The translations under genes and the position numbers were made by a program. A DNA stretch of 64,000 nucleotides from positions 13,640,001 through 13,704,000 of the forward strand of contig OZ024753.1 of the NCBI GenBank assembly GCA_964016885.1. Direction: 5' to 3'. The notes below the pieces were generated by a model that worked only from the letters and a program-made list of their open reading frames with translations, made no database searches and had not been told where the DNA came from. This DNA is from Eledone cirrhosa (taxonomy: Eukaryota). The stretch's first letter is position 1, and each line of letters starts with the position of its first letter. Positions 6,978-56,119 of this stretch are shown here, in pieces.

Positions 6978-7200
6978 TTAGAAATGTAAGCTATCGCCGT
7001 ATTTTGACTAAAGAAATTAAAGAAATTATTTAGCCTGATAGTGGGGTTAAGAACCCTCGGAGAAATGGAAAAAGATGAGTATTGACGTACGTCAATACAC
7101 ATCTTTTTCCATTTCTCCGAGGGTTCTTAACCCCACTATCAGGCTAAATAATTTCTTTAATTTCTTTAGTCAAAATACGGCGATAGCTTACATTTCTAAT
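6978..7200. repeat. Near-perfect ~220-bp palindrome between (TA)n tracts
   Basis: Arms of ~110 bp centred on GACGTACGTC (~7085-7094); mirrored ORFs in the track. Confidence 0.95.
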
Positions 7201-7660
7201 ATATATATATATATATATATATATATATATATATATATATATATATATATATATATGTACAAGAAGGTAGTACAGCATAATCGAAGCTCTGGTTGTGGGC
7301 AAGCTAACGAATGCTGTCGGGAAGTGAAGTCAAAAGCACTCAATAAGGAACTTTACCTTAGAGTTATAACATTACGTTTAGACAGCTATGCAAATTGAAG
7401 CCAGCGACTGAAAAGCGAGCCGCTAGGACCAGAACAACGAAAAAAACCGACTCGGGGATATATATATATATATATATATATATAGATATATGTGTGTATA
7501 ATTAAAGAAATGACAATGTAAAAACACTATCATATTAGTATCACGCTTAGGAGGAAACACACACTCATAATCTATCTAAAGAATGGGAAATCATAAAGAA
7601 TGACTGATGTATTGATAAAATACTGTATTTTACTTCCTAGAAAATATTTTCCTATATATA

Positions 7661-7995
7661 TGGAGGCACATGGCTTAGTGGTTAGAGCATTGGCCTTGCA
7701 ATCGAAAGGTTGTGAGTTCAATTCTCAGACCGGGTGATGTTTCCTTGAGCAAGACACTTTATTTCACATTGCTCCAGTTTACTCAGCTGTAGAAATGAGA
7801 TGATAGGACTGGGGTCCATATCATTCCACTGCAAAGTGGTCGTGGAGGTGCCACGGCAAAAAATCACCCAGCACTCACTGTAAATGAGGTTGGTGTTAGG
7901 AAGGGCATCCAGCTGTAGAAATCAAGCCAGAATCAGTTCCCGTCCCACCTTTGCAAGCAGGGAAAAAGCGGACGTAAAATGATGATGATGATGAT
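7661..7995 (+). mobile_element. tRNA-SINE family B (CORE-like domain, RTE-type 3' end)
   Basis: A box TGGCTTAGTGG, B box GAGTTCAATTC, CCTTGAGCAAGACACTT core, GGAAGGGCATCCAGC, (GAT)n tail; copies at 10435-10845(-), 19874-19983(+, truncated), 44511-44815(+). Confidence 0.85.
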
Positions 7996-8189
7996 ATCTC
8001 CACACAATACCTGCTCTTGAATAAGAACAGTCAACTATATGGTTCTTCTCCTGTTGCTATTATAATCACTTTTTCTCCACAATAAAAGAACACATACAAC
8101 CTGAGGACCCTTTTTGCTCGATAGAGTTGGTAACTCAGAGATCAGAGAGTCGCTCCAGGTAGAACCACAACTTCTCCGAATTGAGAGAT

Positions 8190-8610
8190 CATCATCATCA
8201 TCATCATCATCATCTTCGTTTAACGTCCATCTTCCACGCTAGCATGGGTTAGACGGGAGTTGTGCCACTTGAGGCAAGGTTGTCCGGGTGACCGTGTCTC
8301 GCTCATATAGGACTATCTGGCAGGCTTTCTACGGCTGGATGCCCTTCCTAACACCAACCACATTTACAGTGTAGTACTGGGAACTTTTTACCCTGTTACC
8401 TACACGGCCACATTACAGCGTGGACTGTGTTTTATTTATTTATTTATTTTTTTATCATGACACCTACATGATCTCGATCTCATTATCTCATTTATTTGGA
8501 CTGGATGTTGTGGTACCAACTTTACAGAGAGAGGGTGGTGTTGGTGGGAGGATAGGGTAGCGGTAGTGGATTGGGGTGTATATTTGGTTAGGTGCCTACT
8601 GACTGTAGGT
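8190..8610 (-). mobile_element. RTE family 2 3' UTR fragment
   Basis: Matches 41818-42200 and 35575-36170; (CAT)n on + strand. Confidence 0.8.
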
Positions 8611-9104
8611 TCCATCCATCATTGCTATGATACTGCACACGTGGTTAGAATGTCTAAGGGAAGAATCGCTGGACAGATTTTTTTTACAGGCAAAAATCAA
8701 CCAGCAGGAGACCCAGAGGTAGACCCTGAGCAAGATGGTTGGATAACATCCATGAGCTTGGCTGGTTTCACTTGGGGATCTAGCTGGATCAGTTGGAGAT
8801 GGTTTCACCTGAAAGAACCCACTGGAAGAAGTGTTTGAGGGCTCTGCCCCTATGACCCTCCCATGAATAAGTAGATCTTGTGTTTGTATGTTACAAATAC
8901 CATCTTAATAACGATTTTTATGTTTGGCACAAGGCCAGCAATTTATGTAGAGTGGAAAATTGATTATAAATAAAGTACCAGTACATTACTGGTACTTTAT
9001 TTTATTGATCCTGAAATGATGAAAGGTAAAGTTGACCTCAGTGGGATTTGAACTCCGACCGTAGAAAGCCATATCAAATACCACAAAGCATTTTACCTAT
9101 ACCT

Positions 9105-9857
9105 AAGTATATCTTGCTCCATGTATTTTTACACGGTATATCTTGCTCTGTGTATATTTACACAGTATATCTTGCTCTGTGTATTTTTACACAGTATAAC
9201 TTGCTCTGTGTATTTTTACACAATATTTCTTGCACTGTGTAGTTTTACACAGTATATCTTGCTCTCTGTATTTTTACACGGTATATCTTGCTCTGTGTAG
9301 TTTTACACAGTATATCTTGCTCTGTGTAGTTTTACATGGTATATCTTGCTCTGTGTATTTTTACACAGTATATCTTGTTCTGTGTATTTTTACACAGTAT
9401 ATCTTGCTCTGTATTTTACACAGTATATCTTGCTCTGTGTATTTTACACAGTATATCTTGCTCTGTGTATTTTTACACGGTATTTCTTGTTCTGTGTATT
9501 TTTACACAGTATATCTTGTTCTGTGTATTTTTACACAGTATATCTTGTTCTGTGTATTTTTACACAGTATATCTTGCTCTGTATTTTACACAGTATATCT
9601 TGCTCTGTATTTTACACAGTATATCTTGCTGTGTATTTTACACAGTATATCTTGCTCTGTGTATTTTACACAGTATATCTTTCTCCATGTATTTTTACAT
9701 GGTATATCTTGCTCTGTATATTTTTACACAGTATATCTTGCTCTGTGTATTTTTACACAGTATATCTTGCTCTGTGTATTTTTACACAGTATATCTTACT
9801 CTGTATTTTTACACGGTATATCGTGCTCTGTGTATTTTTACACGGTATATCTCACTC
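9105..9857. repeat. ~27-30-bp minisatellite (TATATCTTGCTCTGTGTATTTTTACACAG), ~25 copies
   Basis: Direct tandem repeats; unit contains CTGTGT/ACACAG inverted pair. Confidence 0.95.
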
Positions 9858-10434
9858 TATTTAACCTGTTTGTTTCACTACAACTGTCATGCAGAATGGG
9901 TTTTTGGATTCATTTGCTCCACATACCTGATAATCACGACACCAATTATGTATTCTTTACTTAACACTGCTTTATATAATTAAATGGTTAAATATTCTTT
10001 ATAAAGTAACTCAGTGGCTTCATTAAATACAATAAAGTACTACAATGAGAACAACAACAATATTTTAAGGCTATCTTCCTTGCTAAAGCAGGAGTTAGTC
10101 TTGCTGACCCTATAACAAGCTTCTCCACTTTGTCTTATTCGCCGTCTCCTCCCATCTCACCAATCCTCAGGCTTTACCTCAGTCATCATCTCCAGTCATG
10201 TCATACTTAGTTTTCCTCTTACAGCTATCGCGTCAGTTTTTGGCTGCACAGGCACCAGATACCATGATAATCACACAGTTCAAATTACATGTTTATTCAT
10301 TAAAAACTACTTTATATAATTACATAGTTAAACATTCTTCAGTAATTTGTTTGCTTCATTAGGTAGGTCAAGTACATTTAGTTCAGTAAATTGTACATGA
10401 GCAAATGGATTGAAATTGGTTGAAAGATATAGTG

Positions 10435-54219: not shown

Positions 54220-54478
54220 CAACTTGAACCATTAAGATCTTGTTCCTGGATATGTCACTATTTATGAAACAAACTTTGTATTTTATCTGATGAGAACGTA
54301 CCAAAGTTTTGGTACCCTTGAAATATATATAATAGAATAAATATGGTTTTATAAATATAGTTTCCATTTATTAATATCATTGATATTATACTCCAGAAAG
54401 CTTGTGGAGTGCTTTGAATCAGTTATAAATATATATATTTGTTGAATTACCAACAAATTAAATATCCCTTTGCTTATA
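54220..54478 (+). mobile_element. HH family 1 copy
   Basis: Closely matches 20088-20340, same 3' end CCCTTTGCTTAT. Confidence 0.85.
54279..54339 (+). ncRNA. Type I hammerhead motif (HH family 1)
   Basis: Same fold as 20146-20206. Confidence 0.8.
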
Positions 54479-54512
54479 TATATATATATATATATAGTTT
54501 TAATATAGATGA

Positions 54513-54561
54513 GATTCTACAGGACTAGAACTGTTTCATTCTTGAGAAATCATCAGGAATC
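54513..54561 (-). ncRNA. Complete type I hammerhead motif in a 125-bp palindrome (54496-54620)
   Basis: gattc-CTGATGA-t-ttct-ca-agaa-t-GAAA-cag-ttctagtc-ctg-TA-gaatc; GUA site; damaged mirror copy at 54562-54605. Confidence 0.8.
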
Positions 54562-54986
54562 AGATTCTTGATGATTCCTCAACAGTTCTAGTCCTGTAGA
54601 ATCTCATCTATATTAAAACTTTTATACTCTGCTATGTATTGAGTACCTTACTTACTGTGGTTACCTCCGATTCAACCCGGAATAACTTACCTATATTTAT
54701 TTATATATATATATATATATATATATATATATCAACTAGAAATTGATTGACACACACATATATATATATATATAAAATAAACATATGAAACAAACACAGG
54801 GAATAATTTGTAAAGTGTGTAATCTTTGAGCATATTCTCCAGTGGATATGGCGCATGTCTCTCGGACATGACACCCTTAATTTAATTTTGGATATATATA
54901 TATATATATATATATATATCCAGTGAATTTCCAACCGATAAGGTATGATTTTCATGGGTATGTCTTTATTTATAAAACAAACTTTG

Positions 54987-55051
54987 TATTTTATCTGATG
55001 AAAGCGTACCAATGTTGTCTTGGTTACCCTTGAAATATATATAATAAAATA
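54987..55051 (+). ncRNA. Type I hammerhead motif (HH family 1, copy 3)
   Basis: Stem I tattttat/ataaaata fully Watson-Crick; longer loop II. Confidence 0.75.
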
Positions 55052-55295
55052 AATATGGTTTTATAAATATAGTTTCCATTTATTTAATATCATTGATGTA
55101 TATATATATATATATATATATATATATATATATCCGTCTTTTTTCTTTTTCTTTATCTCCGTCTTTTTCTAATTGTGCTTAACACTATGACTTATTAAAA
55201 CAATATAAACAATTCATTATCCAGACAGCCTCCAAAAGTAATGGTTGTATTTTAAAAGGGTACGTCAAAGCTATTTGTAAAACTGTTATATATTG

Positions 55296-55360
55296 TATTT
55301 TGTCTGATGAAGGCATACCATAATTTAATATGGTATCCCTGAAATATGTATAATGAAATA
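55296..55360 (+). ncRNA. Type I hammerhead motif (HH family 1, diverged copy 4)
   Basis: Stem II ataccata/tatggtat versus gtacca/tggtac (compensatory change); core intact. Confidence 0.78.
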
Positions 55361-56119
55361 AAGATGGTTTTATAAATATAGTTTCCATTTATTAATATCG
55401 TATATCTACTCCAAAAACTTGTCGAGTGCTTTATATCAGTTATAAAAATATTTACTTGTTGTATCCCAACAACTTTAAATAGAACTTTTGCATATATATC
55501 TATATATATATATAAATGAAAGGTATAGAAATTGTTTTAGCGAGAAGCTAACAGTATTCTATAACATATATGCGACTATGTCGTCAAGATGGGAAAAATA
55601 ATTAACGTAAGATGTAGGAAAAATAATTCAAACTCATCTCAAAAGAGAATCAGGATATAAATTCATCCACAGAATTTAGTGAAATCCAGGGAAAAATCCA
55701 TAGACCCTTAACTCGTGATAAAATAAAGTTTAAAACACCTATCCTTCAATTTGGAAAAACATCAAATGCTCTGTATAGTCTTATATATATATATATATAT
55801 ATTTATCTGTCATCCAGGGACAACAAATATTTCAGCAGTATCAATTCAACATCATCATCATCATTGTTGTCACCATCATCATGATCGCTGTAGGCCAGCA
55901 TCCTTACCATCATCATCATCATCATCATCACAGGCCAGCAGCCTTCTTAGCCACCACCACCCTGCCCTACAGCCCTGTGGTGATGATGTTCAGTGTTAGC
56001 AGCTATCTGACATTGACCTATAAGAAACACATCTGTTCACTGACCTCACTCATCACAAGATGTGTTCTTCCTTAACCCACCCTGCTATTTCTGGTGGGTG
56101 TAGGGCAGTGGGTGGAAGA

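Follow-up and report, generated by a model that had tools for sequence, protein, structure and literature searches.

A bulged hairpin 3' of the hammerhead ribozyme in animal Hydra-type Penelope-like retrotransposons, and its probable part in setting the reverse transcription start

Penelope-like families and their hairpins in the window

The stretch of DNA analysed here, called the window, comprises 64,000 nucleotides of Eledone cirrhosa (assembly GCA_964016885.1, contig OZ024753.1, positions 13,640,001 to 13,704,000 of the forward strand), and coordinates are those within it. It is repeat-rich animal DNA with long interspersed element (LINE) reverse transcriptases (RTs), repeats resembling short interspersed elements (SINE-like repeats) and long microsatellites. 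An earlier note, made from the letters alone, had listed nine short stretches as copies of one stem, YACTC-(N11-22)-GAGTR, or H-type pseudoknot, within otherwise unrelated TA-embedded elements. All nine were found in the DNA where listed. Seven fit a bulged hairpin, the subject of this report; those beginning at 7562 and 7057 do not, and hairpins at 22799 and 50824-50847 had been missed. Sequence comparison indicates that the hairpin is conserved across Hydra-type Penelope-like retrotransposons of animals. It is genuine at the seven good sites and, as an element, is linked with the RT start and no product of chance; it is probably (at about 0.7) an RNA handle bound by the RT-endonuclease of the Penelope-like element (PLE), which would set an internal start site.

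Each of the listed sites falls in a short segment with (TA)n runs on either side, and these segments have the anatomy of PLEs: a fold-back made of an inverted pair of pseudo-long terminal repeats (pLTRs), a type I hammerhead ribozyme or its 3' half, and a short extension. The fold-back, the "tail" and (TA)n targeting of PLEs are described in the available portions of PMC8557442 and PMC3846280, and PLE hammerheads in those of PMC4209133. The flanks cannot be aligned between families, as had been claimed: scores were at most 25 between families vs. 157-322 within family A, and the seven good sites were therefore assigned to five families. Families A and B have full hammerhead cores, C and D have the 3' half, and E has at most a remnant. 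The hammerhead GAAA and the hairpin are separated by 63-66 nt in family A and by about 43-66 nt in the others, in agreement with the 40-70 nt proposed before. In the reads the families are high-copy, with sequence variants among the copies, and for organism B at least one contig runs out in TA at 54620.

The window was scanned with a model of the bulged hairpin trained exclusively on 42 sequences from elsewhere. The top eight matches were at 22713-22750 (34.1 bits), 22791-22826 (27.4), 7332-7372 (22.8), 50818-50855 (19.8), 45114-45152 (18.4), and 54382, 54618 and 55400 (14.3-14.4). The last three score no higher than noise in this model, whose best chance match in 94.6 kb of control loci reached 14.6 bits, and were assigned by context. 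The site at 20256 gave no model match; it fits a one-mismatch descriptor 66 nt 3' of its own hammerhead and is an alignable sibling of the site at 54389.

Family A lies on the plus strand. Copy 1 has a type I hammerhead core (CUGAUGA..GAAA) at 20154-20190, at the end of the fold-back 19981-20162, and its hairpin, at 20257-20277, has the bulge UA and one U-G wobble in helix 1. The core of copy 2 is at 54287-54323 and its hairpin at 54390-54410, followed by a tail to about 54476 and then (TA)n. The diverged copy 3 carries the core at 55304-55344 and the hairpin at 55408-55427, and its tail ends at the same place as those of copies 1 and 2. A further copy at 54940-55098, with the core at 54995-55035, runs into (TA)n and finishes some 5 nt short of the expected start of the hairpin, a position referred to below as the first start site. 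Within this family alone, helix 2 is seen as CAG/CUG, CAG/UUG and CAA/UUG.

The family B fold-back (54497-54619), an inverted pLTR pair, contains an intact minus-strand hammerhead core at 54534-54556, and its inverted arm gives way to (TA)n roughly 5 nt short of the plus-strand hairpin at 54626-54644, which has a tail to about 54700. Family C has two hairpins on the plus strand. The fold-back at 22606-22712, with a hammerhead 3' half (GAAAC, stem III, GUC), has an arm ending 5 nt before hairpin 1 (22721-22744); hairpin 2 (22799-22820) is of the GCUC/GAGC form; and a plus-strand terminal repeat piece at 22885-22939 shares this boundary, giving way to (TA)n 5 nt short of the expected start of hairpin 1. 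The centre of the family C fold-back coincides with the expected hammerhead stem II, and this fold-back, together with 19981-20162, suggests that snap-back at that place makes the inverted arm. In family D, a diverged fold-back with a hammerhead 3' half (44842-45114) has an arm ending about 3 nt before the plus-strand hairpin at 45122-45146, in which helix 2 has 6 bp and after which the tail runs to about 45195. The family E hairpin (7338-7364, minus strand) belongs to a 5'-truncated element at 7257-7457 between TA runs; a possible degenerate second hairpin, with bulge CA and one G-U pair, lies about 60 nt after it at 7283-7304 on the same strand.

The second of the missed hairpins, at 50824-50847 on the minus strand, has one C-A mismatch and belongs to a relative of family C. 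It adjoins a short frame ending in PLGLN that resembles another clade and may be Neptune/Penelope-like; searches with the 44-residue frame (50696-50827) found no homologue and only two repeat-like matches. The surrounding element (50120-50905, minus strand) combines the family C-like hairpin and this frame with a long 3' untranslated region (UTR), a separate hammerhead at 50199-50222 and a (TACA)n end. It is either a chimera or a sign of another PLE clade that shares the hairpin.

The two remaining listed sites, both on the minus strand, are unsupported as hairpins. The first, at 7562-7585, gave no descriptor or model match. The second, at 7057-7081, falls within an arm of the 220-bp fold-back at 6979-7198, and the 36-nt tail of this fold-back is without the hairpin; the region as a whole (6942-7198), a near-perfect fold-back in (TA)n with no hammerhead core, likely belongs to another PLE clade.

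Fold, covariation and occurrence in other elements

The element is 20-28 nt long. Helix 1 is RCUC/GAGY, a 2-nt bulge UN lies on its 3' side, helix 2 has 3-6 bp and RCU or RCC follows 3'. The general form is RCUC..UN-GAGY-RCU, mostly GCUC/GAGC; the outer Y-R pair of the proposed consensus is specific to the window. That consensus also proved unspecific: it occurs at eight window sites, three of them (17014, 38462 and 47692) in one SINE-like repeat, and as written it fails at 20256, 7337, 7562 and 7057. The three TACTC..GAGTA sites in the SINE-like repeat lack the bulge and were rejected as candidates.

Covariation was evaluated in 38 hairpins gathered by sequence alone, with no demand for pairing and with two mis-assigned rows retained. 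The outer pair is formed in 36 of the 38 (G-C in 33, U-A in two, A-U in one) and the helix 2 pairs in 36, 32, 29 and 25, with changes on both sides at each position; the first helix 2 pair is C-G in 16 and U-A in 16. None of 5000 permutations matched the observed pairing counts. In a second alignment of 42 rows, in which pairing was demanded at selection, 96.8% of the cells were paired vs. 23-53% in controls with the structure slid along the sequence. These permutation and pairing statistics are descriptive and not probabilities because the rows are related. A count made blind to the bulge (n = 37) gave 2 nt as the best bulge length in 29 cases, with U as the first base in 28 of those 29, and RCU or UCU 3' of the hairpin in 28.

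Independent loci were obtained by scanning metagenome contigs with a protein motif from the C-terminus of the Hydra endonuclease, and 120 of an estimated ~420 loci were analysed. Nearly all are real endonuclease ends; 52 have a downstream hammerhead, and in 42 at least 95 nt are available beyond it. The strict hairpin was found at +35 to +80 in 16 of these 42, compared with a mean of 0.065 and a maximum of 1 in 200 dinucleotide shuffles. A looser count gave 20 with the hairpin, 13 with a microsatellite end at +30 to +85 and 9 with neither. By eye, the hairpin was also recognised in four of six published Hydra-clade consensi, in the GCUC/GAGC form, just past the pLTR end or at the 5' start: in the tail of Hydra-2_Amil and Hydra-2_Ajap, twice in tandem at the 5' end of Hydra-1_Ajap, and with one mismatch in Hydra-1_Crog. 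When six 9-mers of the hairpin were compared with the available part of the PMC8557442 supplement, full hairpins were found in Hydra entries only; the 3'-half 9-mers gave just four matches in Naiad and Chlamys consensi, with no matching 5' half by eye. The suggestion that a second conserved RNA element lies 3' of the hammerhead in unalignable TA-embedded families is thus upheld by enrichment and covariation. In one group of families (L049, L051, L067 and L074) an extra, unbulged RCUC..GAGU stem lies about +25 after GAAA, between hammerhead and hairpin.

G001, a bin with 12 Mb of animal-type DNA, yielded at least 26 model matches from the 150 of 2508 candidates that were scored; five of the matches overlap training loci. 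Fourteen have their own hammerhead 44-71 nt upstream, most of the others are 5'-truncated or inverted just upstream, and one is without such context. None of 16 hammerheads with a short stem III, their clade judged by eye, has its own hairpin; four of these end in TA too early to tell. A search of the bin for the tandem-hairpin pattern returned one site. Protein-motif scans of viral contigs gave 0 and 1 matches, and genome contigs gave 14, eight of them from two bins with animal-type DNA and the rest chance. These bins, G001 and G002 (L165-L167, L171-L175), are filed as bacterial metagenome-assembled genomes and hold animal-type retroelements and microsatellites; host contamination is likely.

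The non-window loci agree with the Hydra-clade definition in the available portions of PMC8557442, having RWK, DKT, a CxCx5C linker, CxxC and CxH in the endonuclease, and one open reading frame (ORF) in less than 3 kb. Their ORFs encode about 700 residues. In an alignment of 115 relatives of the L106 protein these features are R37-W38, D115-K116-T117, C560-C562-C568, C658/C661 and C687/H689, and the clade has at least 2236 protein relatives. Searches of Pfam, NCBIfam and PDB sequences returned no name for the Hydra proteins. The protein model (pLDDT 93.6) had TERT (3du5, E 7e-9) as its best Foldseek match, with other RTs close behind. In the Hydra ORF of locus L109, RT and endonuclease are separated by a long inserted repeat rich in Ser, Pro and Gln. 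The window copies, with their TA flanks and a canonical type I hammerhead in the pLTR, neither of which is unique to the Hydra clade, are likely non-autonomous Hydra-type derivatives; their clade is assigned by inference because the remnants lack an ORF.

Rfam gave no match at the hairpins of four non-window loci, and the matches listed for the window (150 of 342) were low-complexity or long-hairpin miRNA-type and below the gathering score. The hairpin is not described in the PLE literature searched, to which subscription papers and Repbase reports mostly did not belong, so that an earlier mention is possible. Within these limits, the surmise that the element is undescribed holds.

Several other features of the window were noted. 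A complete hammerhead at 23024-23119 (minus strand) belongs to an element whose end, in (TA)n, comes 58 nt after GAAA, in line with expectation for a first-site copy, and an isolated hammerhead with a 4-bp stem III at 6563-6586 (minus strand) has no recognisable hairpin downstream. A different hammerhead family at 32809-33477, with direct and inverted copies and AC-rich repeats, is also without the hairpin and recalls the AC-rich start region of Poseidon. Nearly intact LINE RT frames, together with a mariner-like element that is interrupted, lie at 23448-26465, 42209-44251, 20470-22113 and 51660-52589, and a 32-bp satellite in 164 copies occupies 11499-16744.

Copy ends and the choice of start site

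Sibling copies without the hairpin were used to map copy ends relative to it. In 16 of 21 comparisons, from about 11 families, the copy ends 1-6 nt 5' of the hairpin position, and five window boundaries lie at about -3 to -5 by first mismatch. The RNA just 5' of the hairpin is UA-rich and in phase, with U at -6 in 28 of 30 sequences, A at -5 in 20 and U at -4 in 23; further upstream U makes up about 50-60%. Intact 5' UTRs contain two hairpins 57-78 nt apart, as seen in nine non-window rows, window family C and also L174 and L175, and in most cases the start codon follows the tandem pair by 20-45 nt. Three tailed insertions of the L174 family share an end point that lies 4 nt before hairpin 2 in the family's own 5' UTR. 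Tail junctions fall 28-52 nt (median 37) after hairpin 1 in the 26 of 46 tails scored, compared with hairpin spacers of about 38-43 nt. In L046 both hairpins use the rare U-A outer pair. Mini-elements without an ORF on the minus strands of L046 and L049 retain the hammerhead and both hairpins, as does window family C. These mini-elements (L046 minus strand, 30-330; L049 minus strand, 2100-2330; and L230) are 150-280 nt long, and their helix 2 starts with a purine; a hairpin in L046 lies just 24 nt after GAAA.

For the Poseidon PLE, internal RT initiation at two sites bounding the tail has been reported in vitro and in the genome, with RNA 3' of the starts required (available portions of PMC11167929). 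If this finding is carried over, each hairpin would be an RNA element 3' of a start. The PLE protein would bind the hairpin in read-through RNA, its GIY-YIG domain would nick (TA)n, and the freed 3' end would pair over 2-4 bases with the UA stretch that immediately precedes the hairpin on its 5' side, from which the RT would copy 3' to 5'. Initiation at hairpin 1 would give a tail-less copy; at hairpin 2 the copy would be tailed, with hairpin 1 and the spacer making up the tail, and the pair of hairpins would account for both start sites at the borders of the tail. The non-coding derivatives of the window may have been moved in trans through the same handle.

Two alternatives that bear on the stem itself fared poorly. 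The pseudoknot proposed by the earlier note, which would protect the RNA end left by hammerhead cleavage, draws on 4-6 nt of loop-to-flank complementarity at four of eight window sites. As drawn for 54389 and 45121, however, its third loop has a length of 0 nt, and loop-to-flank pairing averaged 3.07 nt vs. 3.09 nt with swapped flanks (n = 54, p = 0.56). Moreover, the AAAG/CTTT pairing is broken by variants at 54400 (G>A) and 54414 (T>C) in reads from other copies of family A, and its loop bases are needed for the covarying helix 2. End protection is a weaker rival because copy ends follow the hairpin rather than the cleavage site, and the pseudoknot reading is considered very unlikely; a candidate homology to the telomerase pseudoknot was dropped after it failed. 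The possibility was also considered that the stems are chance pairings in AT-rich repeats. The bare pattern is indeed common, and viral contigs gave 41 matches that adjoin TA runs; in a 12-Mb bin of host DNA the unpaired pattern was no more frequent than its reversed control (365 vs. 332); and four of 12 strict window hits lie in unrelated sequence, with 3.7 expected. Chance does explain the sites at 7562 and 7057 and the three SINE-like ones. None of the 41 viral matches, judged to be chance themselves, has a hammerhead upstream, and for the seven good sites chance is refuted by enrichment, covariation and end mapping, which leaves it scarcely credible as a general account.

Two further alternatives accept the hairpin and assign it another function. 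It may be a signal in DNA or single-stranded cDNA for the GIY-YIG endonuclease, with copy ends and tail arising by endonuclease resolution and not by RT positioning. The D. virilis Penelope endonuclease is reported to need tail sequence for recognition (cited in the available text of PMC11167929), the tail is ascribed to endonuclease resolution in that of PMC8557442, and G-U pairs on the sense strand are only modestly above A-C (13 vs. 8 at four helix 2 positions). This reading is nevertheless improbable, as the strict orientation 3' of a sense-strand ribozyme, the fixed U-first 2-nt bulge and the G-U wobbles fit RNA, and the Poseidon tail ends are RT start sites in vitro (PMC11167929, as available). 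Alternatively, the hairpins may serve packaging, dimer assembly (two hairpins, two subunits), translation or hammerhead folding, with copy ends nearby since the RT starts at the edge of the bound region. Hairpin 2 sits 20-45 nt before the start codon, the UAU register before it is loose, and the Poseidon protein is a predicted dimer whose hammerhead cleaves only with protein (PMC11167929, as available). Against this stands the clustering of copy ends within a few nucleotides of hairpin 1 in about 11 families, and translation is not the sole role because mini-elements without an ORF keep both hairpins. A purpose of this kind is judged unlikely.

The reading of the hairpin as a handle for the RT start has points against it as well. 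TA microhomology blurs the copy ends, and three window alignments can be extended to the hairpin start. Five of the 21 comparisons end elsewhere: at +59 (a tailed copy with a mutated hairpin), +17 (a contig end), +15 and -41 (rearranged junctions) and -16 (unexplained). UAU before hairpin 1 starts at -8 (13 of 30) as often as at -6 (11 of 30), has no fixed register before hairpin 2 (0 of 7 at -6), and the direct link of the second site to hairpin 2 was seen in one family only. In Poseidon, the one PLE tested, the start site is reported to be non-homologous to the target (PMC11167929, as available). Kinship of the sequences makes the permutation tests overstate significance. Hairpin and microsatellite end are both absent from nine of the 42 loci; L069 and L080, two more loci with a long open frame, have in one case only a degenerate hairpin upstream and in the other none; and two of the six consensi lack a clear hairpin by eye, Hydra-1_Amil stopping short of the position and Hydra-1_Obim having at best a degenerate one. 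The window copies are without an ORF, and tblastn with eight Hydra proteins found no match in the window.

The PLE literature consulted leaves open how an internal start site is chosen, what the tail represents, and by what means retrozymes and derivatives without an ORF enlist the PLE protein. The hairpin offers a concrete element with base-level predictions that can be tested in the existing in vitro assay, and a handle of this kind would, if true, explain the long-puzzling tail. No biochemical study of the Hydra clade was present in the literature found. The PLE RT is the sister of TERT, and a defined RT-positioning RNA is therefore of evolutionary interest. The hairpin may also be used as a marker for annotating non-coding PLE remnants and for recognising true element ends.

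Comparison with known systems

Hydra-clade PLEs share with the window copies the (TA)n target, the type I hammerhead with a 3-5 bp stem III, and the fold-back and tail; the available portions of PMC8557442 cover hammerhead and tail and describe no RNA element 3' of the hammerhead. The window copies differ in having no ORF and mostly ACUC/GAGU instead of GCUC/GAGC. The Anolis Poseidon PLE, PAc (Frangieh et al. 2024, PMC11167929), likewise has two tail-bounding RT starts 3' of the hammerhead and requires 3' RNA. Its start lies in an AC-rich stem-loop reported to be non-homologous to the target; no RCUC/GAGY hairpin was seen in the RNA of Fig. S1B, and the available text defines no conserved binding motif.

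Metazoan non-LTR retrozymes (PMC7229834; 10.64898/2026.07.22.740005) are likewise short, non-coding and hammerhead-bearing and have been proposed to be moved by PLEs; the available portions of these sources name no cis-signal for the PLE protein. No window family was seen to have tandem units in which two or more type I hammerheads are complete, and the window copies are fold-back or partial tandem remnants, not retrozyme arrays. Such an arrangement is seen for a 281-nt unit on the minus strand of L046.

In telomerase RNA, hepadnavirus epsilon and the R2 3' UTR, a structured RNA bound by the RT fixes the start of copying. The proposed working of the hairpin is similar, and short primer-template annealing to a simple repeat would recall telomerase. 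There is no match in sequence or fold, and the present element differs in lying 3' of the start, in being uncopied from that start and in occurring in tandem.

The closest likeness in sequence is to the arginine sandwich of HIV TAR and 7SK (Pham et al. 2018, PMC6189040), which has the same purine, bulged U and G-A-G paired to C-U-C-Y. According to the available portions of that paper, TAR A22-U23..G26-A27-G28 / C37-U38-C39-U40 forms a U.A-U triple and binds arginines. The hairpin agrees with this motif in sequence, with U first in 28 of 29 two-nucleotide bulges, a purine before it in nearly all, and the GAG/CUC core. Here the apical loop closes the other helix, a circular permutation, and a 3' RCU is added; homology is not implied. 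An arginine sandwich of the TAR/7SK type is a structural lead for the hairpin core, at somewhat less than even odds. The Hydra proteins have two conserved arginine-rich segments that are candidate arginine donors: RRMRWK close to the N-terminus, and a stretch of 10 residues preceding W[FY]NPP that contains 2-5 Arg in 112 of the 113 proteins carrying this motif. The boldest form of the proposal is tentative and rather doubtful: a module of about 30 nt (UAU, 3-5 nt, bulged hairpin, RCU) might be a portable start signal, a circularly permuted arginine sandwich of the TAR type that would suffice to turn an arbitrary RNA into a template for target-primed insertion into (TA)n by a telomerase-related retrotransposon, with two modules in tandem giving rise to the PLE tail.

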